A stretch of 64,000 nt of DNA from an uncultured Dysgonomonas sp. GTDB lineage: Bacteria > Bacteroidota > Bacteroidia > Bacteroidales > Dysgonomonadaceae. The notes below the pieces were generated by a model. The model saw only the letters and a program-made list of their open reading frames with translations. It made no database searches and was not told the origin of the DNA. Location: the NCBI GenBank assembly GCA_937995835.1, contig CALKIV010000002.1:813-64812 (forward strand). Direction: 5' to 3'. A program made the translations under genes and the position numbers. Shown piece after piece: positions 4,232 to 29,508 of the stretch. The stretch's first letter is position 1. Every line of letters begins with the position of its first letter.

Positions 4232-4284
4232 AAATATATTTCGTCATTGATTCTGAAGATAAATAAATCTAAATAGAACAAAAA

Positions 4285-5601: not shown

Positions 5602-5605
5602 ATAA

Positions 5606-6904: not shown

Positions 6905-7683
6905 CTTGGAACGAATACCTTTGGTTTGCTATACCTGCAATGCTCTGTTGGCTAATAGCCGGAGTCATTGCCTTCAGAAGCGAAAAGAATAAACTTGTAG
7001 ACATTCTCACCATTTTGGGGATAACTATCTTTGGCGCATTTATTATTGGGCTTTGGATAGGACAAGAACGTCCGCCTTTGCGCACCATGGGCGAAACTCG
7101 CTTGTGGTATTCTTTTTTTCTTGCGCTGATTGGCTACATCACTTATAAACACTGGAAATATAATTGGATACTTGGCTTCTCAGCCCTTGTGGCTTCTGTA
7201 TTTGTAATCATCAACATCGTAAAACCTGAGATACATTCCACAAACTTGATGCCTGCTTTGCAAAGTTATTGGTTTGTACCTCATGTCACAGTATATATTC
7301 TATCATACTCCATGCTGGGTGCTGCCACTATTGCCGCCTTTGTGCAATTGGTGAATATGAAAAAGAATAACATAGATGAAAAGCTCTATGACTTTATGGA
7401 TAACATTGTTTATGTAGGCTTTGGCTTCTTGATGTTAGGTCTGTTGATGGGAGCACTTTGGGCAAAAGAAGCCTGGGGACACTATTGGTCGTGGGATCCA
7501 AAAGAGACATGGGCCTTTGTTACATGCGCTGCTTATTTGGTATATATCCATCTTAGACTGCAATCTAAACATCCTAAATTTACCCTTTGGATGCTACCTA
7601 TTTCTTTCATCATGTTGATGATTACTTGGGTGGGAGTGAATTATCTTCCTGCAGCACAAAACAGTATACACGTTTATTCATAA
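6901..7683 (+). CDS. ccsA: Cytochrome c biogenesis heme-handling protein CcsA (system II)
   Basis: Polytopic membrane protein with the Trp-rich WWD motif WAKEAWGHYWSWDPKETW. Confidence 0.85.
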   Translation: MTWNEYLWFAIPAMLCWLIAGVIAFRSEKNKLVDILTILGITIFGAFIIGLWIGQERPPLRTMGETRLWYSFFLALIGYITYKHWKYNWILGFSALVASVFVIINIVKPEIHSTNLMPALQSYWFVPHVTVYILSYSMLGAATIAAFVQLVNMKKNNIDEKLYDFMDNIVYVGFGFLMLGLLMGALWAKEAWGHYWSWDPKETWAFVTCAAYLVYIHLRLQSKHPKFTLWMLPISFIMLMITWVGVNYLPAAQNSIHVYS

Positions 7684-7695
7684 TATAACTTTAAG

Positions 7696-8262
7696 ATGAT
7701 GAGACGTAAAGACAGAGAAATGAGCAAAGAGTTTGCTCACACACTGATTGATCATTCTACCTATGGTGTACTATCAGTCATTGACAAAGAGGGCAATCCT
7801 TATGGACTTCCTCTTTCAATTGTTTGTCAAGGTGAAAAACTTTATTTTCATTCTGCCAAAGGAGGGAAGAAAGTAGAAGCTTTTGAAGATGGGAAACAAG
7901 TCTGTGTCACCTTTGTAGGGAAAACAAAAATACCTGAACTGTTTTCAGAAGAAGAGCTTCAAGGCTTTTTAAAAGATGAAAGTAAGGGTGCAACCTTGAG
8001 CAGTAAGGTTTTTACCACAGAATATGAATCAGCAATGGTCTTTGGCAAAATACATTTAGTGACTGATCAGCCTGAAGCCATTGAAGCTTTACGCCTGATC
8101 TGTCAGAAATATACACCGTCCAAGATGGAATATTTTGACTTAGCCATCAAGTCAGGTTTATCCAGAACAAATATTTATCGAGTAGATATAGAAGAAATCA
8201 CAGCTAAACGAAAAAAGTTTGCCCCTTCGGGTGAAGAACTCAAATGGGGAAAGCTCGAATAA
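7696..8262 (+). CDS. Pyridoxamine 5'-phosphate oxidase family flavoprotein (Nim-like)
   Basis: 188 aa with an MRRKDRE N-terminus and the general pattern of NimA-related PNPOx-fold proteins. It starts 12 nt after the ccsA stop. Confidence 0.7.
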   Translation: MMRRKDREMSKEFAHTLIDHSTYGVLSVIDKEGNPYGLPLSIVCQGEKLYFHSAKGGKKVEAFEDGKQVCVTFVGKTKIPELFSEEELQGFLKDESKGATLSSKVFTTEYESAMVFGKIHLVTDQPEAIEALRLICQKYTPSKMEYFDLAIKSGLSRTNIYRVDIEEITAKRKKFAPSGEELKWGKLE

Positions 8263-8275
8263 TTTTTTGGAAAGT

Positions 8276-8305
8276 AAAAGGCTCACAACTAATTGTGAGC
8301 CTTTT
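8276..8305. terminator. Bidirectional intrinsic terminator hairpin between the PNPOx gene and ric
   Basis: 13-bp perfect stem AAAAGGCTCACAA/TTGTGAGCCTTTT with a 4-nt loop, flanked by A and T runs on both sides. Confidence 0.7.
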
Positions 8306-8337
8306 ATCATTAGAACCTTGATTTGTTCTAAAACAAC

Positions 8338-9063
8338 TTAACCAAAACTCTCCTCTAGTTTTATAGCTTTAGGGAATAAAATATTATTCTCCACATGGAT
8401 ATGAATATGTAAGTTTTCTTCAAACTGTCTTAATTCTTCCAAAACTAATTTATAAGAATTACATGCATATTCTGGTGCAACATAAGCACCTGTCAGCCCC
8501 GATATCTTTCTGAATCGATCCCCTTCACCATCATGTTCCTGTATCATCACCCGTATAGGATTATTTACACTTCCACAATGGAATCGAGGCAATTGCTCTC
8601 CTTTGCTTTGTGCTAAAAGAAGCTCACGAATGAGTGGAAATAAAATATTTTCTTCTTTAGCTAAATGATCGTGAAGATCAACCAATGAAGCGCTGAATAG
8701 CTCAGTCACTTGGTGAAGATGAGAATCTCTATCTCCATGTGCATTCACCACTTTGGTTAACAAAGCATGGATCTCAGTTCCACGAGTACGTATATAATGA
8801 TGATGAAACTTCACTACATAATCGATCAGAAGATCAAGCGACCACTGATCAAAATTAAGTGCTTGAGGCAGAGAGTCGCTTTTGACGCTCAACTCTAAAT
8901 CTTTGAGTAGATCATCTAACACCACTCCACTCTTCTTGACAGCTTCTGAAAGGAGGATATCTCCTCCACAACAGAAATCTATTCCATAAGATTGAAATAC
9001 TTTGGCAAATTCGATGTTTTGAGCAACAATCTCTCCTACCGTTTTATTTACAAAATCTTTCAT
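8338..9063 (-). CDS. ric: Iron-sulfur cluster repair di-iron protein (RIC; ScdA/YtfE family)
   Basis: ScdA_N-type motif YGIDFCCGG near the N-terminus, then a His/Glu-rich hemerythrin-like body. The ORF extends to 9096, but MKDFVNKTVGEIV at 9063 matches family N-termini and avoids overlapping hcp. Confidence 0.85.
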   Translation of the reverse strand: MKDFVNKTVGEIVAQNIEFAKVFQSYGIDFCCGGDILLSEAVKKSGVVLDDLLKDLELSVKSDSLPQALNFDQWSLDLLIDYVVKFHHHYIRTRGTEIHALLTKVVNAHGDRDSHLHQVTELFSASLVDLHDHLAKEENILFPLIRELLLAQSKGEQLPRFHCGSVNNPIRVMIQEHDGEGDRFRKISGLTGAYVAPEYACNSYKLVLEELRQFEENLHIHIHVENNILFPKAIKLEESFG

Positions 9064-9083
9064 TGTTATTTTTTTTTCAAAAC

Positions 9084-10733
9084 TTATGCTATCCAAGCTT
9101 CCATATCACTTTCAACATCAGAAATACCTCCAATGCCGAAGTTGTCGATCAACACTTTCAACACATTCGGTGAGATGAATGCAGGTAAAGATGGTCCTAA
9201 GTGAATATTCTTAACCCCTAGGCTCAACAATGCCAATAGTACGATCACAGCTTTTTGTTCATACCAAGCAATGTTGTATACGATTGGCAATTCGTTGATA
9301 TCTTCTAATTCAAATACTTCTTTCAGTTTCATTGCAATGACAGCCAAAGAGTAACTATCGTTACACTGTCCTGCATCCAGTACGCGAGGTATGCCACCTA
9401 TATCGCCCAATGGAAGCTTGTTGTATCTATACTTCGCACAACCAGCAGTAAGAATCACAGTGTCGTTTGGAAGTGCTTCTGCAAATTCTGTGTAATAGCT
9501 TCTACCTTTCACACGACCATCGCAACCAGCCATTACCACAAATTTCTTGATAGCCCCACTCTTCACAGCGTCTACCACTTTGTCAGCTAATTGAAGCACT
9601 TGATGATGTGCAAAACCTCCAACGATGGTTCCCTCTTCTATCTGAGTAGGTGCTGCACATTTCTTGGCAAGCTCGATGATCTCTGAAAAGTCTTTCTTGC
9701 CATTGGCATCAGCCTTTATATATTTGAAACCAGGATAGCCGGTCGAATTAGTTGTAAATACTTTATCTTTATACGAAGCGTTATTCAGTGGAGGAACAAT
9801 ACAGTTGGTTGTAAACAAAATTGGTCCGTTGAAGCTAGTAAACTCTTCACGTTGTTTCCACCAAGCATTACCATAGTTGCCCACAAAGTGAGAATATTTT
9901 TTGAATTTTGGATAGTAGTTCGCTGGAAGCATTTCGCTATGTGTATAAACATCCACACCGGTTCCTTCTGTTTGCTCCAAAAGGTCTTCCATATCTTTTA
10001 GGTCATGACCACTGATCAAGATGGCCGGATTGTTTTTCACACCGATATTCACTTCTGTCAATTCTGGATTACCATAGCTTTCAGTATTTGCTTTATCAAG
10101 CAAAGCCATTGTTTTTACCCCCACAGCACCAGTCTCTAGCACCAAAGCAATCAGTTGCTCAACACTCAATGTGCCCAAAGCAATATCGTGCATGGCACGT
10201 TGCATAAAGGTATCAACCTCTTCATCCAAGTAACCTAGTCTAGCTGCATGTTCTGCATAAGCAGCCATCCCTTTCAGTCCATAAACAGTGAGTTGAGAAA
10301 GTGAGCGTACATCCTCGTTCTTCTCTGCTAAGATGCCCACAGTAGTAGCTAAATCATCATAATTTTCTTCTTTAGCTGTCCAAGTCACTTGTGGTAGATT
10401 AGGATAATCCACACCGTTTTCTTTACAGAAAGCAAGCAATTGATCTCTTAATTCTAGGCTCTTAGTCACACGCTCTTTGATAGACGATTCGTCAAAATTT
10501 GCATTCGTAATAGTGCAGAAAAGAGCATCACGAACAAAGTCGTTAACGAATTTGAAGTCGTACTCTTTTTTGCTTTCTCTTATCTTGATACTTAATACCG
10601 AAATCCCTTGCAATGAATACATAAGCAAGTCCATGGCATTAGATGTAATAAAGTCTTTACCACAAACACCTTTCAATATACAGCCTTCTCCTTTAGCTGT
10701 CTCTTGACACTGATAACAAAACATTTTCTCCAT
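9084..10733 (-). CDS. hcp: Hydroxylamine reductase / hybrid cluster protein Hcp
   Basis: N-terminal [15 protein letters not shown] cysteine motif; 549 aa; a typical Hcp throughout. Confidence 0.95.
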
Positions 10734-10801
10734 ATTTCTCTATTTTTAGTTTATTATTTTCTAACTTCATCACAAAGAAAAAGAAATGGCATAAGGAAAA
10801 T

Positions 10802-10817
10802 TGTCACAAATGTGACA
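10802..10817. promoter_or_regulatory. Candidate Crp/Fnr-family (HcpR) operator TGTCAC-N4-GTGACA
   Basis: 6-4-6 dyad with perfect arms in the hcp/hcpR divergent region. Its centre is about 76 bp from the hcp ATG and 57 bp from the regulator ATG. Confidence 0.55.
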
Positions 10818-10866
10818 TCGATACATTTTATCAAAACTATTAGGGAATTATTATCATTTACTACTC

Positions 10867-11547
10867 ATGGAGCTTGATATATTAGATGCATTATCGAAAT
10901 CGACATTATTCGAGAATATAAAACGAGAGGAAGTAGAATCCTTTTTGGACAAAAACACCTATCGCATAAAAGAATATACGAAAAATGACGTACTGGCTCT
11001 TGCTGGCGATAAGGTTAATCATCTGATCATTGTGATCAAAGGTGAGTTGATTGCCAGAATGGTTTCTGAATCAGGGAAATATATACAAATAGACAATTTC
11101 AGTCCCGGACGTATTATAGCTCCTGCCATGCTTTTTGCTACTGATGACGTTTTCCCTGTCAATGTTATTCCTGAGGAAGATGCCTCTGTCTTCTTTATGC
11201 ATAAAGATACTTTTCTGAAAGCTATGCATCAGAATGAGAAACTGCTCCACAACTTTATTCGCATCGTTTCAGATATTAACCGTTTTTTGAGTACTAAAAT
11301 TCATTCTTTATCCCTTAAAACAATCAGGGGTAAACTAGCTGAGTATATCTTGGTGGAATCTAAGAAACAGCAAAGTCTAAATAAAATTACCTTACCTATG
11401 ACCAAACAAGAATTGGCTGACAAATTTGCTGTGGCAAGACAGGCTCTTAGCCGATCTTTATCAGAATTGGAAGAAGAAGGCTTGGTCAGCATAAGAGGGC
11501 GAGAAATAAAAATATTGGATAGAGAGCGCCTATCTCTCGTAGAATGA
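10867..11547 (+). CDS. hcpR: Crp/Fnr family transcriptional regulator, HcpR-like
   Basis: N-terminal cNMP-binding-like beta-roll and a C-terminal HTH (TKQELADKFAVARQALSRSLSELEEEG). It is divergent from hcp. Confidence 0.7.
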   Translation: MELDILDALSKSTLFENIKREEVESFLDKNTYRIKEYTKNDVLALAGDKVNHLIIVIKGELIARMVSESGKYIQIDNFSPGRIIAPAMLFATDDVFPVNVIPEEDASVFFMHKDTFLKAMHQNEKLLHNFIRIVSDINRFLSTKIHSLSLKTIRGKLAEYILVESKKQQSLNKITLPMTKQELADKFAVARQALSRSLSELEEEGLVSIRGREIKILDRERLSLVE

Positions 11548-12118: not shown

Positions 12119-12150
12119 TCGACTGAAAAGAGTTCTTTATCATTTTTCAT

Positions 12151-12327
12151 CCATTAAGGTGCTTGTCTTTTTAATAAGACATAAGGGAACCACGTGCAAA
12201 TCGTGGACTGTCGCGCAACTGTAATCACTGTTAATTTCTATTTTGATAAATAGAGTCACTGTTTCTCTCAAGGAATGGGAAGGCTAAAAAAATAGAAAGG
12301 TGTAAGTCAGGAAACCTGCCTCATTGG
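12151..12327 (+). promoter_or_regulatory. Cobalamin riboswitch, copy 1
   Basis: Core AAGGGAACCACGTGCAAATCGTGGACTGTCGCGCAACTGTAA, then CACTG...GGGAAGGC, then the B12 box AAGTCAGGAAACCTGCC (12304-12320). P1 pairing CCATTAAGG/CCTCATTGG. Confidence 0.85.
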
Positions 12328-12536
12328 AATTTGACTAAAACTTCGCGTAAAAGTAAGTGTCGAGTAATAATTTTCCTCTAAAAAGAATCTGTTGAGGATA
12401 ATTTCTCCCCTATTTATTTCCTTTAATCATAAGTTGCGAAGTTCTGTGAAGAACCTTGCTAAGTTTTTATACCTTTTTTAGGATATTAACTAGAGCTAAA
12501 ATAGCATTCATGTGTTTGGTGATACTACAAATATTC

Positions 12537-12695
12537 GTTTGTGGTATTAAAAGGGAATCTGGTGCAAAACCAGAACAGTGCCCGCTACTGTAAGTCTCTG
12601 TACATATGCTTCGAGAGCACCACTAGCCACTATTGGGAGACCAATTGGGAAGGCAAACTTTGAAGCGAGACAAGTCAGGAAACCTGCCAGACAAA
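12537..12695 (+). promoter_or_regulatory. Cobalamin riboswitch, copy 2
   Basis: Core AAAAGGGAATCTGGTGCAAAACCAGAACAGTGCCCGCTACTGTAA, then GGGAAGGC, then an identical B12 box AAGTCAGGAAACCTGCC (12672-12688). It ends 70 nt upstream of the receptor ATG. Confidence 0.9.
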
Positions 12696-12765
12696 AATTA
12701 AATATCGAATCACTTCGGGGCCAAGGTGATAGTTTATAACCTTTTTATTTTTATAGAAAAAAATC

Positions 12766-14844
12766 ATGTTCAAGAAAAAATTACTATCTATTTTGTTAGT
12801 AGGATTTGTTGTTTCTGGCATTTCGGCTCAACACCAAAAACCCAAAATGTCTGACAGCGAACGCGAGCAAGCAGTAGAGCTTAACCATGTTGTGGTTACT
12901 GGGACAGGAACACACCAACGCCTGAAAGATTCTCCTGCTCCTGTGGAGGTCATCACAGCCAGAGACATCAAAAGAACAGGAATCACTGACTTTCAGCAAG
13001 CCATGTCTACTCTTGTTCCTTCTCTATCCTTCTCTGGTGGAGGTGCGATGGGGAATTATATGATGATGAATGGATTGTCTAACAAGTACATTCTTGTGCT
13101 GATCAATGGTAGAAAATTAACTGGGGATGTGTCAAACAACATCGACCTATCCAGAATCGACGTTAGCAGAATCAAGCGAGTGGAAGTGCTACATGGTGCT
13201 GGTTCGTCTCTTTATGGTTCTGATGCCATTGCCGGTGTTATCAATATCATCACAGATGAGCCTAAAGACATCATGAGTGTGTCTAGTACTACCAAGTTTG
13301 AAGAATATGGACAATTTTCTCAAATCGTAAATGTAGATTTGGCAAATGAAAAATTCGGATCATATACTTCTTATAAGCACGATCAGTCTCATGGATGGCA
13401 ACAAAGTCCATACAAATATGACAAAAAAGGAGAGCCTGCGCCTACCTTAACTCAGACAACTAATGCTTTTCACTCTAATATTATAGATCAAAGATTTACT
13501 TTCAATCCTACCAATAGATTGTCTTTTTATGCCAATGGTGGATATTATTGGAAATTGACCGATCGCCCTGAGTTCCAAAAAGACATAGATGGAGGCTCAA
13601 AATATGATATACATTACGAGTCGTACAAATTTGGACTAGGTGGAAAATATAAGCTAAATAATAAGTCTACCCTCTCATTAGACATGATTCAAGACAACTT
13701 TAATCAGAATTATAAATACACCTATGATGAGAAAGACTATAAGATAGGTGATTATAGCAAAACAAAAAGACAAAAATTTTATGATGTAGAAGCTAAGGGA
13801 ATCTTCAAATTTGCTAAAAACAACACAACTGTTTTTGGATTAGATTACCGTTCGGAGACTCTTGATCGCCCGAGTGCCAATGTGGACGAATCGCTATACA
13901 CCATGTCTGCTTATGGCCAACATGAAATCAAATTCTTAGACCACTTCACTGCTATCGGAGGATTGCGGTACGACTATCATGAAACAGCAAAAGGCCGAGT
14001 GACTCCTAAAGCAGCTCTTATGTATTCAGTAAATAACTTTAACTTCAGAGGTACATATTCTGCAGGGTTCAGAGCTCCGGGCTTAGATGAACTATATTAT
14101 TACTTATGGAAAGCAGGAACAAGCAGCACTGTTACAGTAGGTAACAAAAACTTGAATCCTGAAAAAAGTAACTATTTCTCTTTAAATGCTGAATATAAAA
14201 CGAACCGTTTTTCTCTTTCTGCTACCGGATACCTCAACTATGTGGATGATATGATCACTGATCATACTACACCATTTGCAGATATGCCTGCTGATGTGGC
14301 TGCAAAATTGAAAGCTAAGATAAAGGAAGACTTTCACATGACTGACGATGAGATCGATGGGGTTAAGAACTACAAAGAATATCTCAACCTAGAAAAAGGA
14401 CAAGTAAGAGGGTTCAACGTTAGTGCTATGGCATATCTTGCTTATGGCGTTAGTGTGAATGCTAACTATGCTTATGCTTCGGCACAAGGGAAAGACAAAA
14501 GTGGCGAATGGGGACCAGTCAGCCGTTCCATCAGACACTCTGCTACTGTGGGAGCTAACTATCTAAAACATTGGGAGAAATATCAATTGAATGTTAATCT
14601 GAATACCAGATTCCAAAGCAAGAGAAATCAACCGGGTCATAGCTATGGTGATGCCCCCGGATATGGAATATGTAATATTTTCACCAGACACACTTTCACT
14701 GGAATCAAATTTATCACATTGGAACCAGGGATTGGTATCAACAATATATTCAACAAGGTGGACGATCGTCCAAATGGCGTAAACTATGGTCTACTTTCTC
14801 CGGGAAGAACCGTAATGGCTAGTCTAAGAGTACAGTTTAAATAA
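12766..14844 (+). CDS. TonB-dependent outer-membrane receptor (BtuB/HmuR-like, corrinoid or tetrapyrrole class)
   Basis: Signal peptide, TonB-box/plug region (HVVVTGTG...SPAPVEVITARDI), a barrel with the FRAP...NLNPEKS motifs, and a C-terminal LRVQFK. It sits downstream of the B12 riboswitches. Confidence 0.85.
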   Translation: MFKKKLLSILLVGFVVSGISAQHQKPKMSDSEREQAVELNHVVVTGTGTHQRLKDSPAPVEVITARDIKRTGITDFQQAMSTLVPSLSFSGGGAMGNYMMMNGLSNKYILVLINGRKLTGDVSNNIDLSRIDVSRIKRVEVLHGAGSSLYGSDAIAGVINIITDEPKDIMSVSSTTKFEEYGQFSQIVNVDLANEKFGSYTSYKHDQSHGWQQSPYKYDKKGEPAPTLTQTTNAFHSNIIDQRFTFNPTNRLSFYANGGYYWKLTDRPEFQKDIDGGSKYDIHYESYKFGLGGKYKLNNKSTLSLDMIQDNFNQNYKYTYDEKDYKIGDYSKTKRQKFYDVEAKGIFKFAKNNTTVFGLDYRSETLDRPSANVDESLYTMSAYGQHEIKFLDHFTAIGGLRYDYHETAKGRVTPKAALMYSVNNFNFRGTYSAGFRAPGLDELYYYLWKAGTSSTVTVGNKNLNPEKSNYFSLNAEYKTNRFSLSATGYLNYVDDMITDHTTPFADMPADVAAKLKAKIKEDFHMTDDEIDGVKNYKEYLNLEKGQVRGFNVSAMAYLAYGVSVNANYAYASAQGKDKSGEWGPVSRSIRHSATVGANYLKHWEKYQLNVNLNTRFQSKRNQPGHSYGDAPGYGICNIFTRHTFTGIKFITLEPGIGINNIFNKVDDRPNGVNYGLLSPGRTVMASLRVQFK

Positions 14845-14852
14845 ATTATAGC

Positions 14853-15773
14853 ATGAAAAAGATACTTTTTATTTTAATGTTAACAACATCAATCATTTGT
14901 CAGGCACATGAAGGAGGAAACTTCGTTGCTTCTGACATTCAGAAAGAGTTAGGCAAAGGCGATAAAGTGGCGTTACTGATGGTTCATTTCGGAACCACTT
15001 ATGACGACACTCGCGCTGTCACCATAGACGCTATTAATCAAAAGGCAAAAGAAACTTTCAAAGATCTAGAGATCAGAGAAGCATACACTTCACGCATTGT
15101 TATGCGTCGTTTAAATGACCGAGGGATAGTGAAGGCTGATCCTGTGAGTGCACTTCTTCGCCTAAAAGCTGATGGCTATACACATGTTTTAGTGCAGAGC
15201 TCAAACATCATCGAAGGCGTGGAAATGGAATCTCTTAGAAGAGATGTAGCTTCTGTAAAGCAATTCTTCAAAGAAATCAGAGTGGGAAATCCCCTGTTAT
15301 ATGCTACTGAAGACTTTGAACGTGTGGCTGACATCTTCATCAATACTTATCCTGAGAAGAAAGACTTTGTGCTTGTTGGTCATGGTACTTATACCCCAAG
15401 CACAGCCTCTTATGCTATGATGGATTACATCTTCAAGGCTAAAGGAAATGGGAACTTCCATGTGGGAACTGTGGAAGCATACCCTACTTTCGATAATGTA
15501 GTAGATCAATTGAAGGTTAGAAAAGCAAAACAAGTGTGTCTTATTCCTTTCATGTTTGTTGCTGGCGACCATGCCAACAATGACATTGCAGGAGACTGGA
15601 AAGATGATTTAGAAAAAGCTGGATATAAAGTAGATGTAGCAATGAAAGGCCTTGGAGAATATCCAGAGATCCAAGACATCTTCATCGAGCATATCCAATT
15701 TATCATGCACCACCGTATGCTAGACATTATGGATAAGAAAAAAGCATACGCCGCAGGAGCAGAAGTTCACTAA
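14853..15773 (+). CDS. cbiK: Sirohydrochlorin cobaltochelatase CbiK family protein with an N-terminal export signal
   Basis: MKKILFILMLTTSIICQA signal, then the CbiK hallmarks LLMVHFGTTYDDT, VLVGHGT and FMFVAGDHANNDIAGD. The metal-binding His residues are retained. Confidence 0.85.
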   Translation: MKKILFILMLTTSIICQAHEGGNFVASDIQKELGKGDKVALLMVHFGTTYDDTRAVTIDAINQKAKETFKDLEIREAYTSRIVMRRLNDRGIVKADPVSALLRLKADGYTHVLVQSSNIIEGVEMESLRRDVASVKQFFKEIRVGNPLLYATEDFERVADIFINTYPEKKDFVLVGHGTYTPSTASYAMMDYIFKAKGNGNFHVGTVEAYPTFDNVVDQLKVRKAKQVCLIPFMFVAGDHANNDIAGDWKDDLEKAGYKVDVAMKGLGEYPEIQDIFIEHIQFIMHHRMLDIMDKKKAYAAGAEVH

Positions 15774-15804
15774 TAATAGTTTATAGAAAAAAAAATCACA
15801 ATTC

Positions 15805-18800
15805 ATGTCCCGAAAATTAGTCATAGCATGTAGTGCTCTATTGTTGATTGTCGCCTGTTTCTTTGGGTATAAATATTGGTTCGCACCCACTCATATTCTT
15901 TTTCTTAATGTGCCTAATGCACAGGCTGCAGACATCACTTTGAACAATGATAGTAAACACATCAAGATCACCTGCCTAGCAACTGATGAGGCTGAGTCGC
16001 TTGATGGATATGATGCCATAGCTGTTTTCGGGCGTGGATTACATCTCACTGAAGAGCAACAGGCAGCATTGGAAAAGATAGCCGAAAAGGGAACTCCCAT
16101 TTTAACGATCTCTTCCAATGCTGCTCTGTCTCCTCTCAATTTCAATTTAACAGGTGCTGAACGGGTGCACTTGTTACAATACTTCAATAATCCCAATTTG
16201 ACAAACTATCGGAACGCTTTACGGGCTTTGAGGCAGATAGCTACACCTCAACGCATTCCTAAAGAAGAGTTTGATGAGCCCATAGAATTGCCTAACAATC
16301 ATTATTATCACAGAGAATATGGGCAATATTTTGAGACAAAAGAAGAACTTACCAACTACTTAAAAAACAAAGGTCTCTATCACGAGGATGGAAAAAATAT
16401 TGCATTCATCAGTGGAGTTAATTTCCCAATGGAAGGCAATCGTGCTCATGTCGACACCTTGATTTATCGCCTTACAAATGAAGGCTTTAATGTATATCCT
16501 ATTGCTAGCCCACAAGGCAGAAGCGAGATGATTAAAGATTTGCTACCTGATGCTGTGGTCTACTACCCAATGGGACGACTAGGAAATGATGAATTTATCA
16601 ATTGGTTACACACAGAAAGTATTCCTCTTTTTTGTCCTTTTCCTCTGATTCAATCCACAGAAGAATGGCTTGACCCTATGAATCCTGTATCGGGAGGTGT
16701 CCTCAATGGACGTATCTTAGTGCCCGAAATAGATGGAGCGATGACTCCATTGGCTATTGCCACGCAAAACCCTCACCCAAGTGGCTATTATCTATATACT
16801 GTGGAAGAAGAACGAATGAACAACTTCATTCAACACGTAAAGAAATATTTAGGCTTGTCTCAAAAGGCCAATAGCGAAAAGAAAGTCGCCATCTGCTATT
16901 TCAGATCACCAGGGAAAGATGCTCTGCTGGCTAGTGGCATGGAGGTGATCCCCTCGCTATACAACTTCCTAAAACTTTTACAATCGCAAGGGTATAGCCT
17001 ATCTGGCTTGCCTACAACCTTAGAAGCATTTAAGAAAAGAATAAATACAGATGGATTGATACTTGGTTCGTATGCCAAAGGAGCACAAGAGGACTTCTTG
17101 AAAAATGCCAATCCTGTTTGGCTTAGTTCGAAAGAATATGAACGATGGGCTAAAGCTATTTTAGCTCCTCATAAATATCAGGAAGTGATAGATAAATATG
17201 GAGAAGCTCCCGGAGAACTACTTGTAAAAGAGGATGAATCGGGAGAAAAAAAGATCGCCTTTGCTTGTCTCCAATTTGGTAATGTGATTCTCTTTCCTCA
17301 ACCTCGCCCAGCCTTAGGCGATGATGACTTTAAGCTGGTACATGGAATGCCTGTGGCGCCACCTCACAGCTATCTTGCCCCCTATCTATATGTTCACAAA
17401 GGCTTTGGTGCTGATGCTATTATTCACTTTGGAACGCATGGCAACTTAGAATATACCCCAGGGAAGAATGTCGCCCTATCGAAGAATGATTGGGCAGAAG
17501 TCTTGGTCAATGATTTGCCCCACTTCTATTTCTATACCACTGGCAATGTGGGCGAAGGCATCATAGCCAAAAGACGGACACACGCTGTTTTAGTCACTCA
17601 CCTCACTCCTCCCTATGTGGAAAGTGGAATGCGTCAACGCTATAGTGCTATATTGGATAATATACACCACCTACTGCACACAGGGAACAGCAATAAAGTG
17701 CTTGCCCTACAAACCAAGAAAGATGTAATGAAACTTGGCTTGCACCGAGATTTGGAACTTGATTCTATTCCTGACAATCCTTTTTCTATTAAGGAGTTAG
17801 AAAAAGTAGATCTATTTATGGAAGAGATAGCCAACGAAAAAACAATGGGCGCTTTTTACACCATGGGCGAGGCTTATTCGGCTAGAGACCTGTTAACAAC
17901 CACACTGGCTGTCAGTGCCGATCCTCTTGCCTATACTTTAGCCAAACAAGATCGTGATGCTGGCAAGATCACAACTGAGCAGCTACAGAATTTTGCTTAT
18001 ATCGCACACCACTATTTGCCTACAGCTAAAAAGAGATTGACCACACTTTTGCAATCTCCGAATAAGAATATCAATACAGTAGATTCTTTGTTACAAGATG
18101 CCTTAAGATATCGAGAGCTGTTAACGCTTTCTACAGCAAATGAGTTTAAGGCAATACTACAAGGGCTAAATGGAGGGAATATTTTCCCTGCACCGGGTGG
18201 CGATCCCGTATTAAATCCAAATGTTTTGCCCACTGGACGCAATATGTATAGCATCAATGTGGAAACCACGCCAACCAAACGCTCGTGGGAAGAAGGGAAA
18301 CGTTTAGCTGAAAGCTCAATCGAAATTTATAAAGAGAAACATGGCACATTGCCTCGAAAAGTAAATTACACTTTTTGGGCAGGTGAGTTTATCAATTCCG
18401 AAGGGGCAACAGTGGCTCAAGCCTTATATATGCTTGGTGTAGAACCTGTGCGCGATTCGCAAGGACGAATTGTAGATATCAAGTTGATTTCTTCTGAAGA
18501 ATTGGGACGTTCGAGAATCAATGTCGTGGTACAAGTATCGGGGCAATTGAGAGATATTGCCGGTTCTCGATTGAAGCTGATCACTGAGGCTGTTCGCTTG
18601 GCTTCTTCTGCCACAGATGATATTTATCCCAATTTCGTTTCTTCAGGAACACTTCTTCAAGAGAAAGACTTGATCGATCAGGGTGTTCCTCCTCTCAAAG
18701 CCAGAGAAATGTCTGTGATGAGGGTCTTCGGCCCAGTCAACAGTGGATACAGCACAGGGATGATAGCCTATACGGACAACAGTGGCAAATGGGATAGCGA

Positions 18801-19725
18801 AACTGAGCTTGTAGAGGGCTACCTCAACAATATGGGAGCGATCTATGGCGATGACGAAAATTGGGGAGCTTTTCAGAAAGGTTTATTAGCCTCTGCTCTT
18901 GCCGAGACGGATGTCATCATTCAGCCTAGACAGAGCAATACATGGGGCCCAATTTCGCTCGATCACGTATTTGAATTTACTGGTGCGATGTCGCTTGCTG
19001 TAACACATATTACAGGCAAAGAACCTGATGCGCTGATGGCAGACTACAGAAATAGGAATAATAAGCGAATGCAAAACTTAAAGGAAGCAATAGCTGTGGA
19101 ATCGAGAGCAACGATCCTGAACCCGACCTTTGTAGAAGAGCGCATGAAAGGCGATGCTACAACGGCTCAACAGTTTGGAAAAATATTCCGTAATATCTAC
19201 GGATGGCAAGTGATGCGTCCTTCGTCTTTGGATAAGGAAATGTACAACGATCTTTATGACATGTATATTGCCGACAAACACAATTTGAATATTCATAAAT
19301 ATTTTGATGAGGTAAATCCTGCTGCTTTGCAAACAATCACCTCTGTGATGCTGGAAAGTGCACGCAAAGGATACTGGAAAGCGTCTCCTGAACAGCTAGA
19401 ACAAACCTTAGTACTACACACGAACAACATTAGGCAACATGGGGCAGCATGCACCGAAGTGGTCTGCGACAATCAAAAATTGCAAGGCTTCATCAGTAAA
19501 AATTTGTCGTCAGAAAAGAATGCTGAATATAAAAAGGGCATGAGCAAAGCCTTAGAAGGTGGACAAGAGGTGCAAGATGGTGTTGTCCTCAAGAAAGAGA
19601 CGAGCTATGGAGCAGATCAACCTTTGGAAGAGAATAAAAATACAATCATCATTGTAGCTGTTGTTTTACTTGCATTTTTGGGGCTCTTGGTGATGCTACG
19701 CAAAAAGAGAAAAAATCAGAAGTAA
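15805..19725 (+). CDS. CobN/magnesium-chelatase large-subunit family protein, HmuS-like, with a TM helix at each end
   Basis: 1306 aa with a CobN-type core (HFGTHGNLEYTPGK, NPNVLPTGRNMYS). N-terminal TM LVIACSALLLIVACFFGY and C-terminal TM IIIVAVVLLAFLGLLVML followed by RKKRKNQK. Confidence 0.85.
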   Translation: MSRKLVIACSALLLIVACFFGYKYWFAPTHILFLNVPNAQAADITLNNDSKHIKITCLATDEAESLDGYDAIAVFGRGLHLTEEQQAALEKIAEKGTPILTISSNAALSPLNFNLTGAERVHLLQYFNNPNLTNYRNALRALRQIATPQRIPKEEFDEPIELPNNHYYHREYGQYFETKEELTNYLKNKGLYHEDGKNIAFISGVNFPMEGNRAHVDTLIYRLTNEGFNVYPIASPQGRSEMIKDLLPDAVVYYPMGRLGNDEFINWLHTESIPLFCPFPLIQSTEEWLDPMNPVSGGVLNGRILVPEIDGAMTPLAIATQNPHPSGYYLYTVEEERMNNFIQHVKKYLGLSQKANSEKKVAICYFRSPGKDALLASGMEVIPSLYNFLKLLQSQGYSLSGLPTTLEAFKKRINTDGLILGSYAKGAQEDFLKNANPVWLSSKEYERWAKAILAPHKYQEVIDKYGEAPGELLVKEDESGEKKIAFACLQFGNVILFPQPRPALGDDDFKLVHGMPVAPPHSYLAPYLYVHKGFGADAIIHFGTHGNLEYTPGKNVALSKNDWAEVLVNDLPHFYFYTTGNVGEGIIAKRRTHAVLVTHLTPPYVESGMRQRYSAILDNIHHLLHTGNSNKVLALQTKKDVMKLGLHRDLELDSIPDNPFSIKELEKVDLFMEEIANEKTMGAFYTMGEAYSARDLLTTTLAVSADPLAYTLAKQDRDAGKITTEQLQNFAYIAHHYLPTAKKRLTTLLQSPNKNINTVDSLLQDALRYRELLTLSTANEFKAILQGLNGGNIFPAPGGDPVLNPNVLPTGRNMYSINVETTPTKRSWEEGKRLAESSIEIYKEKHGTLPRKVNYTFWAGEFINSEGATVAQALYMLGVEPVRDSQGRIVDIKLISSEELGRSRINVVVQVSGQLRDIAGSRLKLITEAVRLASSATDDIYPNFVSSGTLLQEKDLIDQGVPPLKAREMSVMRVFGPVNSGYSTGMIAYTDNSGKWDSETELVEGYLNNMGAIYGDDENWGAFQKGLLASALAETDVIIQPRQSNTWGPISLDHVFEFTGAMSLAVTHITGKEPDALMADYRNRNNKRMQNLKEAIAVESRATILNPTFVEERMKGDATTAQQFGKIFRNIYGWQVMRPSSLDKEMYNDLYDMYIADKHNLNIHKYFDEVNPAALQTITSVMLESARKGYWKASPEQLEQTLVLHTNNIRQHGAACTEVVCDNQKLQGFISKNLSSEKNAEYKKGMSKALEGGQEVQDGVVLKKETSYGADQPLEENKNTIIIVAVVLLAFLGLLVMLRKKRKNQK

Positions 19726-19734
19726 GCCAGAGGT

Positions 19735-20427
19735 ATGGAACTAATCATTCAGATATTAATGGCATTCATCTTCATTGGCTGTTGTCTCAGGCTCAGCTTC
19801 TGGAAGCTCTGGAAAAGCATGATATTCAGTGCCGTATGTGCTGTATTCATTCTTTGGAGCTATCAATATGCTGTTATGCAGTCTAAGACTCAACTTGCTG
19901 ATTATCTAAACAATGGCAAGATGATGCAAAATATGGCTGTGCTGATCACCATCGAATCGGTAATTTGCATCTCCTTTTGCTTTGCTTCATTGAGACAAGC
20001 AATAAGGAAATCTAAAAATAAATATCTGAGCCTTTTGAACTGGTATCCAGGTATTCTTATTTTCCCTGTGTTGTTCTATGTGATGACGCAATTGATCTTC
20101 AACCTTTCAGGAGTAGACTTTTCGACCATCTCTTATACGCTGGCTTTCATTGCCTTTATCAGTTTGCCTATTTTGGGTCAATTATTAAAATGGCTTTTGG
20201 ACGAAACTGAGTTCAGATTAGAGGTTTATTTTTTGGTTTGCCTCTTCATTTGCATCCTCGGACTTGTCTCCACCGTTAGTGGAGAAGTGGTCTATGCAGC
20301 AGTAGAACAGCCACTCCACCTTAAAGCCTACCTGATGGCTTTTGGCGTTTTTGCACTTGCCTTTGGTGTAGGATGCCTTTGGAATAAATATAAATGGATA
20401 ATAAAAACAAAGAAAAATAAATTTTAA
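19735..20427 (+). CDS. Polytopic membrane protein, HmuT-like (about 6 TM helices)
   Basis: 230 aa and very hydrophobic. Its position and size match the gene that follows hmuS in hmu loci. Confidence 0.55.
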   Translation: MELIIQILMAFIFIGCCLRLSFWKLWKSMIFSAVCAVFILWSYQYAVMQSKTQLADYLNNGKMMQNMAVLITIESVICISFCFASLRQAIRKSKNKYLSLLNWYPGILIFPVLFYVMTQLIFNLSGVDFSTISYTLAFIAFISLPILGQLLKWLLDETEFRLEVYFLVCLFICILGLVSTVSGEVVYAAVEQPLHLKAYLMAFGVFALAFGVGCLWNKYKWIIKTKKNKF

Positions 20428-21033
20428 ATGGAAGTTATATCTAAAGTCTTATTTTGGGTAGCTAACAGCTTGCTGATCCCCGATATCATTCTTCTGCTGT
20501 TGCTCTTCGGACGTTCATTGATCTTAATCGGTAGTTTCTATAACCAATTTATGGTGAAAAGAAAAAACGATAAGCTAATGGGAAATACTATACAAAATCT
20601 AAATGACACCTCTGTGGCAGATCTGCACAAGCAACTGCCTGAAAAAGACAATTCATTAATAATAAAATACCTCAGAGAGATCGTAGGCTCACCACAAAAT
20701 GAGACCTCGATTGATTTTCATATCACGAACTTTGAGATCGAAGCCGAAAAGGATCTTTCCTTATCCAAAATGCTTGCCAAATTAGGCCCAGTCTTAGGAC
20801 TGATAGGCACATTGATAGCAATGAGTCCTGCCCTCGTAGGCTTGTCCACTGGCGACATTTCGGGCATGGCATACAACATGCAAGTGGTATTTGCGACTAC
20901 AGTTGTAGGATTAGTGATCAGTGCTATTGGCTTGTTCACCTTACAAGTGAAACAGCGATGGTATGCGAAGGATGTCAACAACCTTGATTTTGTATCTAGA
21001 CTATTAATCGAAAATAAAAAGAGCAATGAGTAG
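20428..21033 (+). CDS. MotA/TolQ/ExbB proton-channel family protein (HmuU-like)
   Basis: N-terminal TM helix plus the C-terminal motif LGPVLGLIGTLIAMSP, typical of ExbB/TolQ. Its start abuts the previous stop (TAAATG). Confidence 0.75.
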   Translation: MEVISKVLFWVANSLLIPDIILLLLLFGRSLILIGSFYNQFMVKRKNDKLMGNTIQNLNDTSVADLHKQLPEKDNSLIIKYLREIVGSPQNETSIDFHITNFEIEAEKDLSLSKMLAKLGPVLGLIGTLIAMSPALVGLSTGDISGMAYNMQVVFATTVVGLVISAIGLFTLQVKQRWYAKDVNNLDFVSRLLIENKKSNE

Positions 21034-21364
21034 ACAACGAAGAAGAGTGTCCAGACTGATGAAAGACGACGATAGCGATCCTCTAGCAGTAGTTGTCAAC
21101 CTGTTTGATGTGGCTATGGTGTTTGCCGTAGCCTTGATGGTAGCCATGGTGATGCATATGAATATGACAGAAGTTTTTACGCAAGAAGATTATACGATTG
21201 TGAAAAATCCGGGGAAAGAGAATATGGAAATCATCCAAAAAGAGGGAAACAAGATAAATAAATATACACCCTCACAGGAGCAATCGCAAGGAAAACAAAA
21301 GGGACGGAAAGTTGGGATTGCCTACGAATTAGAGAATGGCGAAATTATTTATGTTCCTGAATGA
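21026..21364 (+). CDS. Small single-TM protein, DUF2149-like (HmuV-like; possible ExbD-type partner)
   Basis: 112 aa. A basic N-terminus is followed by the TM helix AVVVNLFDVAMVFAVALMVAMVM. It overlaps the ExbB-like gene by 8 nt. Confidence 0.55.
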   Translation: MSRQRRRVSRLMKDDDSDPLAVVVNLFDVAMVFAVALMVAMVMHMNMTEVFTQEDYTIVKNPGKENMEIIQKEGNKINKYTPSQEQSQGKQKGRKVGIAYELENGEIIYVPE

Positions 21365-21447: not shown

Positions 21448-21480
21448 AAAAAAAGCCACTTATACTATGCATAAGTGGCT
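21448..21480 (-). terminator. Intrinsic terminator after tRNA-Lys
   Basis: Perfect 10-bp stem AGCCACTTAT/ATAAGTGGCT with a 7-nt loop, followed on the minus strand by a T-run. Confidence 0.7.
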
Positions 21481-21485
21481 TTCTG

Positions 21486-21558
21486 TGACCCCGGAGGGAT
21501 TCGAACCCTCGACCCATTGATTAAGAGTCAATTGCTCTACCAACTGAGCTACGGAGTC
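21486..21558 (-). tRNA. tRNA-Lys (anticodon CTT)
   Basis: The reverse complement folds as a cloverleaf: acceptor GACTCCG/CGGGGTC, D arm GCTC-AGTTGGTA-GAGC, anticodon arm ATTGA-CTCTTAA-TCAAT, T arm GAGGG-TTCGAAT-CCCTC, discriminator A. 73 nt, with no encoded CCA. Confidence 0.95.
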
Positions 21559-27567: not shown

Positions 27568-27633
27568 AAACAGATATACGAATTATTGAAGTCAAGACGA
27601 AGACACAATGGTTCGTATTTTAATTTGATAAAC

Positions 27634-28716
27634 ATGTCTGAAGAAATATTCTTGATGAAAGGGAACGAAGCCATTGCCCACGCTGCCGTTAGATACGGTG
27701 CCGATGGTTATTTTGGCTACCCTATAACACCACAGTCCGAAATTCTGGAGACGCTAATGGATTTAGCACCTTGGAAAACAACTGGCATGGTGGTGATGCA
27801 AGCAGAAAGTGAATTAGCATCTGTTAATATGGTATATGGAGGAGCTGGATGTGGCAAAGCCGTATTCACCTCATCGTCTAGTCCGGGAATGAGTTTGATG
27901 CTCGAAGGAGTTTCTTACCTTGCCGGTGCAGAATTACCCTGCCTACTGATCAATGTGATGAGAGGTGGACCGGGACTGGGAACAATACAAGCCTCTCAGT
28001 CAGATTATTTTCAGGCAGTAAAAGGTGGTGGTCATGGAGACTACAACATGATTGTCTTGGCTCCTGCTTCGGTGCAAGAGATGGCTGACTTTGTGGTCAA
28101 AGGTTTTGACTATGCCTTCGAATATAGAAATCCTACGATGATCCTAGCCGATGGAGTCATCGGTCAAATGATGGAAAAAGTAACTCTACCTCCCTTCAGA
28201 CCAAGAAGAACAGACGATGAGATAAAAGCTAGCTGCCCATGGGCTTCTCTTGGTAGAAGAAAAGGGGATGCACCTTCGATCATCACTTCGATAGATTTGG
28301 ACTCTCAACGCATGGAAGAAAGAAACCTACATCTACAACGCAAGTATCAAGAGATAAAAGATAAAGTATGCCTTTATGAGGAAATAGAATGCGATGACGC
28401 AGAATATATCCTTGTGGCTTATGGCTCGTCTGCCAGAATATGCCGTAAGGCTGTTGAACTGGCAAGAGAGCAAGGAATCAAAGTAGGACTAATCCGTCCG
28501 ATCACGCTTTGGCCATTCCCTACCAAGATTATCCAAAACAGAATAGCCCAAGTGAAAGGCTTCTTGACTGTAGAGATGAGTGCCGGACAAATGGTAGAAG
28601 ATGTGAGACTGGCTGTAGAAGGACGCACGAAAGTAGACTTCTTTGGGCGTTTGGGTGGCATTATCCCTACCCCTGACGAAGTGGTACATGCTCTGAAAGA
28701 AAAGTTTAATTGCTAA
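27634..28716 (+). CDS. 2-oxoacid:ferredoxin oxidoreductase alpha subunit (Kor/Vor type)
   Basis: MKGNEAIAHAAVRYGADGYFGYPITPQSE is the typical N-terminus. The ATG at 27634 is preferred over the listed upstream TTG at 27586. Confidence 0.85.
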   Translation: MSEEIFLMKGNEAIAHAAVRYGADGYFGYPITPQSEILETLMDLAPWKTTGMVVMQAESELASVNMVYGGAGCGKAVFTSSSSPGMSLMLEGVSYLAGAELPCLLINVMRGGPGLGTIQASQSDYFQAVKGGGHGDYNMIVLAPASVQEMADFVVKGFDYAFEYRNPTMILADGVIGQMMEKVTLPPFRPRRTDDEIKASCPWASLGRRKGDAPSIITSIDLDSQRMEERNLHLQRKYQEIKDKVCLYEEIECDDAEYILVAYGSSARICRKAVELAREQGIKVGLIRPITLWPFPTKIIQNRIAQVKGFLTVEMSAGQMVEDVRLAVEGRTKVDFFGRLGGIIPTPDEVVHALKEKFNC

Positions 28717-28728
28717 AATTAAAAGAAA

Positions 28729-29496
28729 ATGAAGACAGATGTATATAATATAATCGACCCTAGCAATCTTGTTTATGCCAAACCAGTATTGATGAATGAC
28801 ACAGAGATGCACTATTGCCCTGGTTGCTCGCATGGCGTGGTACATAAAATCATTGGAGAAATAATCCAAGAATTGGGTTGGGAAGAAATCACGATAGGAA
28901 TAGCCCCAGTGGGCTGTGCCGTGTTTGCCTACAACTATCTGGATATAGACTGGCAAGAGGCTGCTCATGGTCGTGCTCCCGCTTTAGCAACGGCAGTGAA
29001 AAGACTGAATCCGACTAAAATGGTATTCACCTATCAAGGAGATGGTGACTTAGCTGCTATTGGTACTGCCGAAACCATCCATGCTGCCAATCGTGGCGAA
29101 AATATTGCTATCATATTCATCAATAACGGTATCTATGGAATGACTGGTGGTCAGATGGCTCCGACTACCCTAGAACACATGCAGACAGCCACATCGCCAA
29201 CAGGTAGAGATGTTGGCTTTACGGGACATCCTCTAAAGATTTCTGATCTTTTGGCTCAAATTGATAGTGTATGTCTAGCCACACGCACAGCTGTGCACAC
29301 AGCCGCTGCTGTCAAGAAGACCAAAAAGATGATCAGATTAGCATTCGAAAACTCGATGGCTGGCAAAGGAACTTCTATCGTAGAGGTGGTTTCTACTTGC
29401 AATATGGGATGGAAAATGACTCCTGATGCTGCAAACAAATGGATGGTGGAACACATGTTTCCAGTCTACCCGTTAGGAGATTTGAAAAACGTATAA
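28729..29496 (+). CDS. 2-oxoacid:ferredoxin oxidoreductase beta subunit (TPP-binding)
   Basis: Cys motif CPGCSHG plus the TPP motif YQGDGDLAAIG...FINNGIYGMTGGQ. Confidence 0.85.
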   Translation: MKTDVYNIIDPSNLVYAKPVLMNDTEMHYCPGCSHGVVHKIIGEIIQELGWEEITIGIAPVGCAVFAYNYLDIDWQEAAHGRAPALATAVKRLNPTKMVFTYQGDGDLAAIGTAETIHAANRGENIAIIFINNGIYGMTGGQMAPTTLEHMQTATSPTGRDVGFTGHPLKISDLLAQIDSVCLATRTAVHTAAAVKKTKKMIRLAFENSMAGKGTSIVEVVSTCNMGWKMTPDAANKWMVEHMFPVYPLGDLKNV

Positions 29497-29508
29497 AAAT
29501 TCAGAATA

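Follow-up and report, generated by a model that had tools for sequence, protein, structure and literature searches.

The window analysed here is a stretch of 64,000 nucleotides (nt) of contig CALKIV010000002.1 from an uncultured Dysgonomonas sp. It contains a tightly packed operon of six genes encoding, in this order, a TonB-dependent receptor, a secreted CbiK, a CobN-like protein, an HmuT-like protein, an ExbB-like protein and a DUF2149 protein. The third gene, an open reading frame (ORF) with an ATG start at 15805..19725 on the plus strand, encodes the CobN-like protein of 1306 residues that is the subject of this study. Two tandem cobalamin riboswitch aptamers, both complete, lie within a single 738-nt leader in front of the operon. 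The features of the leader and the operon are as follows.

12140..12337, plus strand: cobalamin riboswitch aptamer 1 of the tandem pair (Rfam RF00174, 93.6 bits, E = 5.6e-22, full-length match to the model)
12500..12705, plus strand: cobalamin riboswitch aptamer 2 (RF00174, 98.3 bits, E = 2.5e-23), 60 nt upstream of the first operon gene
12766..14844, plus strand: TonB-dependent outer-membrane receptor, 692 residues (Pfam Plug and TonB_dep_Rec_b-barrel)
14853..15773, plus strand: secreted CbiK-type class II chelatase, 306 residues (Pfam CbiK, E = 1.6e-78; Sec signal peptide MKKILFILMLTTSIICQA, predicted cleavage before HEG)
15805..19725, plus strand: CobN-like (de)chelatase, assigned to the BtuS1 type, 1306 residues (Pfam CobN-Mg_chel; structure match 9d26)
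15814..15870, plus strand: predicted N-terminal signal-anchor helix of the CobN-like protein, residues 4-22 (mean Kyte-Doolittle hydropathy 2.22), with MSR(K) ahead of the helix
19642..19698, plus strand: predicted C-terminal transmembrane helix of the CobN-like protein, residues 1280-1298 (mean hydropathy 3.17)
19735..20427, plus strand: HmuT-like polytopic membrane protein, 230 residues, about 6-7 hydrophobic segments, no Pfam or NCBIfam match
20428..21033, plus strand: proton-channel subunit of the MotA/TolQ/ExbB family, HmuU-like, 201 residues (Pfam MotA_ExbB, E = 3.7e-10)
21026..21364, plus strand: DUF2149 protein, HmuV-like, an ExbD-like single-pass protein of 112 residues (Pfam DUF2149, E = 1.8e-34), the start of its gene overlapping the ExbB-like gene by 8 nt

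The Pfam domain CobN-Mg_chel (PF02514) matched residues 125-1198 of the CobN-like protein over profile positions 2-1090 of 1090 (E = 2.3e-271), and this full-length match places the protein in the CobN/ChlH superfamily of class I chelatases. A Kyte-Doolittle hydropathy scan (19-residue window, threshold 1.6) revealed only two strongly hydrophobic segments across the 1306 residues, namely residues 4-22 (KLVIACSALLLIVACFFGY) and residues 1280-1298 (TIIIVAVVLLAFLGLLVML). The second segment is followed by the tail RKKRKNQK (nt 19699-19722), which contains six Lys or Arg and no Asp or Glu residues; helix and tail align with the C-terminal helix and the RKRRK tail of HmuS from Bacteroides thetaiotaomicron. 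The best 80 of 202 related loci in Bacteroidales genome contigs were used for comparison, and 75 full-length CobN-like relatives were recovered from them. A hydrophobic segment was present at the N-terminus in 74 of these 75 proteins and at the C-terminus also in 74, so the two-helix pattern is not due to chance. The median net charge was +3 before the first helix and +4 after the second. Because the terminal segments and the positive charges are conserved among the 75 relatives, it is a sound prediction that both termini are cytoplasmic and that a catalytic body of about 1250 residues lies on the periplasmic face of the cytoplasmic membrane. The N-terminus was also considered as a lipoprotein signal, since IVAC (residues 15-18) fits a lipobox. 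This was ruled out: the motif occurred in only 7 of the 75 relatives and its Cys is not conserved, so the N-terminus is a signal anchor.

One transmembrane helix per terminus and a predicted periplasmic body are also the published features of the HmuS/BtuS family. Rocha et al. (2019) predicted BtuS1 and BtuS2 (BtuS2 being HmuS) of Bacteroides fragilis to be periplasmic and membrane-anchored (PMC6460266), and Mesle et al. (2023) described HmuS as anchored by two predicted helices, one N-terminal and one C-terminal (PMC10100974). For B. thetaiotaomicron HmuS the two-helix periplasmic prediction has been published (PMC10100974, PMC12583661), and in a 2026 study HmuS of Porphyromonas gingivalis was located by fractionation and proteinase K treatment in the inner membrane of E. 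coli with periplasmic exposure (PMC13227078). A preliminary description of this DNA had proposed a CobN-family ORF at 15805-19725 with a transmembrane helix at each end, an MSRK head and an RKKRKNQK tail, which was confirmed by the ORF call, the Pfam match and the hydropathy scan. Its placement of both termini in the cytoplasm and of the large body outside the cytoplasmic membrane agrees with the charge and hydropathy statistics, with the published predictions and with the P. gingivalis HmuS data. This reading of the topology is right and yet not new: for the family, a helix at each terminus, a periplasmic body and the absence of ChlI/ChlD partners had all been published before. The window gene is an ordinary further member of the HmuS/BtuS family.

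A Cys-x4-Cys pair, C1216/C1221 (nt 19450-19467), was found in the C-terminal domain. It is invariant in 49 aligned relatives and also present in B. thetaiotaomicron HmuS, and could form a disulfide bond or bind metal in this domain, which is predicted to be periplasmic.

The top match of the CobN-like protein in the PDB was the heme de-chelatase HmuS of B. thetaiotaomicron (9D26, 1164 bits), which aligned from the N-terminal helix through the C-terminal helix and the basic tail and, judged by sequence, has the same six-domain CobN/ChlH-like fold. Structures of ChlH and CobN scored three to four times lower. The equivalog cut-offs of NCBIfam were not reached either, with 580 bits against 1619 and 571 against 1248 for CobN, and 525 against 829 for BchH. 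As these scores are far below the cut-offs, the name "cobaltochelatase subunit CobN" that relatives carry in the databases is a family label and not a function. CobN and ChlH/BchH share with the window protein the CobN-Mg_chel domain and the superfamily-wide catalytic histidine of the GTHG motif, but they are soluble, cytoplasmic and ATP-dependent via ChlI/ChlD or CobS/CobT, and they insert metal. The window protein, in contrast, is anchored in the membrane with a predicted periplasmic body, no AAA+ partner is encoded nearby, and its nearest characterised relative removes metal.

No AAA+ chelatase subunit (ChlI/ChlD or CobS/CobT) was found in the operon or among the Walker-A ORFs of the 64-kb window. 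The latter encode ABC ATPases, a GH28 hydrolase, a PmbA/TldD protein and a subunit of a 2-oxoacid:ferredoxin oxidoreductase. The claim of the preliminary description that AAA+ motor subunits are missing was thus borne out within these limits, and within the same window neither the AAA+ partners nor the soluble cytoplasmic location of a canonical CobN/ChlH was found. The database names of the relatives, the Pfam domain and the control by B12 riboswitches would nevertheless suit the canonical cytoplasmic cobaltochelatase CobN of aerobic B12 synthesis. This candidate was excluded by the sub-threshold equivalog scores and by the terminal transmembrane helices with their positive-inside tails. As the window also lacks CobS/CobT and ChlI/ChlD, the neighbouring B12 genes of the relatives are of the anaerobic, CbiK-using cbi type, and the nearest solved relative is a de-chelatase, we give it practically no chance.

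The catalytic residues of HmuS were retained. Both dyads of HmuS site 2 are present as H545/E584 and D1053/H1054 (H538/E577 and D1208/H1209 in B. thetaiotaomicron), within the motifs GTHG (H545), GNVGEG (E584) and SLDH (D1053, H1054), and they are invariant in 75 of 75 relatives. The ligands of site 1 were not found: Arg77, Met256 and Gly302 stand at the positions of Met79, His254 and Gln299 of HmuS. Among the relatives these three positions are occupied by Arg in 75 of 75, by Met in 72 of 75 and by Ala, Ser or Gly in 73 of 75 proteins. The Met-rich insertion of about 120-150 residues that is present in HmuS is missing too, B. thetaiotaomicron residues 747 to 913 being skipped opposite window residues 753-759. 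The window protein has 1306 residues and its relatives have 1231-1316, compared with 1463-1469 for HmuS. With the catalytic residues of HmuS but neither its site-1 ligands nor its Met-rich insertion, the protein appears to be of the BtuS1 type and not HmuS proper.

The gene order was compared with those of known operons. According to PMC6460266, Rodionov et al. (2003) had set "BtuS" apart as a third CobN type involved in metalloporphyrin salvage. In the window the order hmuYRSTUV is not preserved; R-, S-, T-, U- and V-like genes are there, a secreted CbiK lies between R and S, and HmuY is absent. HmuS operons contain the same downstream genes as the window, namely those of HmuT, HmuU (ExbB-like) and HmuV (DUF2149), but they include HmuY and are under iron or heme control, whereas the window operon has the secreted CbiK in place of HmuY and is controlled by cobalamin riboswitches. 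The genes found instead are those of a BtuS1-type locus: CbiK, a membrane protein, a TolQ/ExbB-like protein and DUF2149, with a cobalamin riboswitch in front. The BtuS1 locus of B. fragilis is listed as CbiK, BtuS1, membrane protein, TolQ, DUF2149 and cbi genes (PMC6460266 supplement), and BtuS1 of B. fragilis 638R (BF638R_2504/2505) is likewise a CobN-like protein of about 1300 residues, predicted to be membrane-anchored and periplasmic, without an AAA+ partner. The B. fragilis locus continues into the cbi genes, while the window operon is followed by a tRNA gene and unrelated genes. Judged from its sequence, the window protein belongs to the B12-linked BtuS1 type of the HmuS/BtuS family and is a sister of HmuS rather than HmuS itself, the assignment to BtuS1 being made from the locus gene list and the riboswitch and not from a direct alignment with B. 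fragilis BtuS1 (CBW23013).

The riboswitches of the 80 Bacteroidales loci were searched with a covariance model made from ten of them. A same-strand riboswitch was present upstream of the CobN-like gene in 55 of the 80 loci; in 16 of the remaining 25 the available upstream sequence is shorter than 6 kb. In most of the 80 loci CbiK and the CobN-like gene are neighbours, and nearly all of about 65 CbiK ORFs examined have a signal peptide. The ExbB-like and DUF2149 genes lie downstream of the CobN-like gene in most loci as well, and an HmuT-like protein is weakly conserved at the same position in many. Further downstream on the same strand, 35 loci contain genes for corrin synthesis (CbiC/H and CbiG/F) and 28 contain genes for BtuF-like proteins; the downstream sequence reaches 6 kb or more in 58 of the 80. 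The nearest named genome, Dysgonomonas sp. Marseille-P4361 (locus L001), encodes a protein of 74% identity and has kept the whole operon and the tandem riboswitches (aptamers at 6405-6591 and 6738-6933 of L001), whereas most other relatives carry a single aptamer. The branch controlled by B12 riboswitches occurs in many Bacteroidales genera, and single 90%-identity clusters of close relatives (61-65% identical) contain up to 9,543 sequences.

The CbiK of the window showed its best PDB match to the periplasmic CbiK(P) of Desulfovibrio vulgaris (2xvx), with FetB in third place. The catalytic histidines of its GHG and GDHA motifs and the catalytic Glu are conserved, so that it resembles CbiK(P) and the P. 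gingivalis protein FetB/IhtB (9b86) in being secreted with intact catalytic residues. The heme-ligating His96 of CbiK(P) aligns with a Glu in the window CbiK and, unlike CbiK(P) and FetB, the window CbiK is fixed beside a BtuS1-type gene under B12 control. FetB, an extracytoplasmic CbiK homologue, inserts Co and Mn into a porphyrin analogue (PMC13065792). A second, shorter CbiK of 272-274 residues was observed just ahead of the cbi genes in Bacteroides (L005, 17940-18758; also L009, L010, L020, L021, L025 and L031). The shorter CbiK also has a signal peptide and both copies are therefore predicted to be secreted, which raises the question of where cobalt is inserted.

The operon probably encodes a B12-repressed periplasmic module for tetrapyrrole processing, in which BtuS1 removes or exchanges a metal and the product serves the supply of B12. 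The family, the conserved residues, the predicted topology, the riboswitches and the synteny come directly from the analysis, while we infer what the substrate is, in which direction the reaction runs, that CbiK takes over from BtuS1 and what the HmuT-like protein and the stator do. The two tandem riboswitches would repress the operon when B12 is plentiful. Otherwise the receptor would bring a metallated tetrapyrrole into the periplasm, where BtuS1 would remove or exchange the metal of the macrocycle at the site formed by His545/Glu584 and Asp1053/His1054. The structure of HmuS was solved by Nath et al. (2025), and its soluble domain converts heme to protoporphyrin IX with NADH and needs neither ATP nor membrane potential in vitro (PMC12583661). 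De-chelatase activity has been shown for B. thetaiotaomicron HmuS only, with supporting data for HmuS of P. gingivalis and B. fragilis (PMC12583661, PMC13227078). As a reaction of the HmuS type needs reduction and not ATP, it would explain the missing AAA+ partner. The secreted CbiK with its intact chelatase site would then insert Co(II), and the product or the freed metal would enter the cell, possibly via the HmuT-like protein, for the B12 economy rather than for iron nutrition.

Several points weigh against this proposal. No protein of the BtuS1 type has a known substrate, the topology of the CobN-like protein of the window is a prediction, and the ligand class of the receptor cannot be read from its sequence. 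NADH, the in vitro reductant of HmuS, is not periplasmic. No cbi or btuFCD genes follow the operon in the window, which has a tRNA gene and unrelated genes there; it is a minimal version without the downstream corrin neighbours of its relatives. The only phenotype comes from B. fragilis, where a btuS1 btuS2 double mutant grew poorly on heme as the sole iron source while the btuS1 single mutant was normal (PMC6460266). That phenotype fits a role in heme as well as, or better than, a role in corrins.

The same mutant favours the main alternative, in which the window protein is a second heme de-chelatase like HmuS that strips Fe(II) from imported heme for FeoB, the riboswitch being incidental or reflecting cross-talk between heme and corrinoid uptake. 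Neither B. fragilis single mutant was fully impaired on heme iron, pointing to overlapping functions (PMC6460266), and every catalytic residue of HmuS site 2 is conserved in the window protein. The heme-receptor family gave the best NCBIfam match of the operon's receptor, although this model and that of BtuB both remained far under their cut-offs, and one CobN-ExbB-DUF2149 locus outside Bacteroidota (L089) adjoins feoB. However, Met79, His254 and the Met-rich insertion, which count among the defining features of HmuS (PMC12583661), are absent, with Arg77 and Met256 at the positions of the two ligands. HmuY-less Hmu-like operons behind a cobalamin riboswitch, one of them in B. fragilis, were judged by Mesle et al. 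(2023) to lie likely outside heme utilisation and to be "perhaps involved in" cobalamin metabolism (PMC10100974). The window operon is regulated by two such riboswitches, which are conserved in the 55 related loci, and it has a secreted CbiK in place of the HmuY hemophore; in many relatives corrin-synthesis and BtuFCD-like genes follow. On this evidence a heme de-chelatase is unlikely, and we favour the B12-linked module.

Class I chelatases are normally driven by a mechanical motor, as in the pairs ChlH-ChlI/D and CobN-CobS/T. The operon encodes no AAA+ subunit. Its ExbB-like/DUF2149 pair is a proton-driven stator. Like ExbB-ExbD (with TonB), TolQ-TolR and MotA-MotB, it combines a protein of the MotA/ExbB family with a single-pass protein that has an Asp in its transmembrane helix (Asp28 of DUF2149, within NLFDV); its small subunit, however, is DUF2149 and not a member of the ExbD/TolR Pfam family as in the canonical stators. 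In a set of 1.84 billion proteins the small DUF2149 family has 575 representatives, and the transmembrane Asp is nearly invariant in its diverse members. A literature search on DUF2149, or on CobN with ExbB in methanogens, found no paper on their coupling.

The synteny of the pair was sampled in nine contexts outside Bacteroidota (L081-L089), none of them identified as archaeal. In seven of the nine (L082-L086, L088 and L089) a CobN-like gene was adjacent to the ExbB-like and DUF2149 genes, and in four of these seven (L083, L084, L085 and L088) no TonB-dependent receptor was found within 9 kb. In locus L089 (3162-12806) the genes for an ExbB-like protein of 430 residues, DUF2149 and a CobN-like protein with two anchors are accompanied by a DUF2292 gene and by a receptor gene that is followed by its own canonical ExbB-ExbD-TonB set and feoB. 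The non-Bacteroidota CobN-like proteins have a C-terminal transmembrane helix and, in most cases (L083, L085, L088 and L089), an N-terminal hydrophobic segment too; the called N-termini of the L082 and L084 proteins are uncertain. No cobalamin riboswitch was detected in the non-Bacteroidota CobN-ExbB-DUF2149 loci, either with our own covariance model or with Rfam, so the control by B12 is specific to the BtuS1 type of Bacteroidales.

The preliminary description had argued that ATP is not available outside the cytoplasmic membrane and had proposed that the ExbB-like channel powers the enzyme. The synteny outside Bacteroidota gives this some support, through the seven adjacencies, the four receptor-less loci and L089, yet it is an inference and soluble HmuS needs no motor. 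The description had also assumed a forward chelatase, which does not match the only characterised relative, as that enzyme works in reverse. Its topology stood, its energy source is a tentative proposal, and the tandem riboswitches, the secreted CbiK and the identity of the family had been overlooked.

In its full form the idea is that of a periplasmic chelatase inserting metal in the forward direction, in which the ExbB-like/DUF2149 stator replaces the AAA+ motor and the proton-motive force drives the conformational cycle. The motor normally required by class I chelatases, the adjacency in seven of nine contexts (four of them without a receptor, and L089 with an additional canonical ExbB-ExbD-TonB set), and the membrane anchoring of the non-Bacteroidota CobN-like proteins all speak for it. 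So does the nearly invariant transmembrane Asp of DUF2149, which recalls ExbD, TolR and MotB, and the 2026 P. gingivalis paper leaves room for an effect of HmuT/U/V on HmuS activity (PMC13227078). On the other hand, the only characterised member of the family de-chelates, an activity that requires no motor in vitro (PMC12583661), and for metal insertion the operon already has the secreted CbiK, which works without an energy supply. The transmembrane helices of the CobN-like protein are its least conserved parts (0.33, compared with 0.72 for the body, among the 75 relatives), which argues against a sequence-specific engagement by the stator like that of the TonB helix with ExbB. Published models moreover give HmuU and HmuV to the TonB-receptor system. 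Taken together, this makes a forward chelatase driven by the proton-motive force quite improbable.

With regard to energy only, those published models (PMC10100974, PMC12583661) suggest another explanation, in which the pair is a dedicated ExbB/ExbD that energises the receptor of the operon through a TonB encoded elsewhere and the enzyme needs no energy. The operon does begin with a TonB-dependent receptor that needs energy and has no other ExbB/ExbD, and soluble HmuS is active alone (PMC12583661). This is less easily reconciled with the four loci in which the three genes occur without a receptor within 9 kb, and with L089, where they lie beside a complete canonical ExbB-ExbD-TonB set. Two further loci, L081 and L087, have the pair without a receptor in a lineage with CW_binding_2 proteins, and DUF2149, with its very few members, goes with CobN-like genes and is not a general ExbD. 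A role for the receptor only is possible but less likely than not. A dedicated link of the stator to the CobN-like protein is plausible from the synteny, and the chances are about even or slightly better that within the B12-linked module the stator would act on the complex of BtuS1 and HmuT as well as, or instead of, the outer-membrane receptor; the synteny does not show what the stator drives.

A more general idea is that extracytoplasmic CobN-like proteins form a class of (de)chelatases driven by the proton-motive force, with the ExbB-like/DUF2149 stator (together with HmuT in Bacteroidota) in place of ChlI/ChlD, and that BtuS1 and CbiK carry out a metal swap in the periplasm. We regard it as speculative and rather unlikely. 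If true, iron would for example be stripped from siroheme or another metallated precursor and cobalt inserted, and the swap would supply a truncated anaerobic cbi pathway in those Bacteroidales that are unable to make the macrocycle. It is through the HmuS/BtuS proteins that Bacteroidota abundant in the gut and the mouth free metals from tetrapyrroles in the absence of oxygen. The heme-specific branch of the family was not solved until 2025, and the branch controlled by B12 riboswitches is widespread. The substrate of BtuS1 would bear on how Bacteroidales without early tetrapyrrole synthesis obtain corrinoid precursors or cobalt, and whether the ExbB-like/DUF2149 pair energises the enzyme itself would tell if a stator driven by protons is able to take over from an AAA+ motor.

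Further observations were made on the loci outside Bacteroidota. In the 430-residue protein of L089 the N-terminal half is polytopic and the other half, to which it is fused, is ExbB-like. With the canonical set, two stator systems lie side by side in this locus. Its polytopic half was tried as an HmuT homologue; no significant similarity to the HmuT-like protein of the window was found (E = 0.32), and homology is not claimed. L081 and L087, which have the ExbB-like and DUF2149 genes without a CobN-like gene or a receptor, belong to a lineage with Gram-positive-type CW_binding_2 proteins. In these regions (L081, 5526-10096; L087, 5618-10103) the pair lies beside a gene for a secreted beta-propeller-like protein of 547-616 residues, with 62% identity between the two loci. 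Genes for the cobalt transporter CbiM/CbiQ and for the CW_binding_2 proteins are close by. The beta-propeller protein was considered as a two-anchor client of the stator; a clear two-anchor topology was not apparent and the generalisation was dropped.

Among the Bacteroidales relatives, about 50 of the 80 loci have, ahead of CbiK, genes for a TonB-dependent receptor with a CarbopepD extension and, after it, for a conserved protein of about 420 residues without a Pfam family. The window operon does not contain the 420-residue protein, and its receptor is of a different type. Examples of this protein are located at the following positions.

L042, 7732-9018: protein of about 420 residues
L070, 7736-9004: protein of about 420 residues
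L005, 7631-8899: protein of about 420 residues
L001, 18451-19710: protein of about 420 residues

L001 possesses a third cobalamin riboswitch (15677-15879) after the DUF2149 gene, at the place where the window has the tRNA gene and unrelated genes. It leads into a second receptor, the 420-residue protein, a tetrapyrrole methylase and genes of a BtuFCD-like transporter.

Scans for promoters and terminators around the riboswitches and past the last gene of the operon gave nothing beyond chance except a hairpin beside the tRNA gene. This hairpin may terminate transcription from both directions and mark the end of the operon. The remaining features of the window that were recorded are a region of nitrite and nitrosative-stress genes at 2732-11547, upstream of the riboswitches, and the two elements that follow the operon.

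2732-7683: cytochrome c552 nitrite reductase NrfA and ResB/CcsA-type cytochrome c assembly genes
8338-9096, minus strand: ScdA/hemerythrin repair protein
9084-10733, minus strand: hybrid-cluster protein
10867-11547: Crp/Fnr-type regulator
21450-21484: 16-bp hairpin beside the tRNA gene
21486-21558, minus strand: tRNA gene, after the operon

At 27586-30051 the window also contains three adjoining genes of a 2-oxoacid:ferredoxin oxidoreductase, with POR_N/PFOR_II, TPP_enzyme_C and POR gamma domains.

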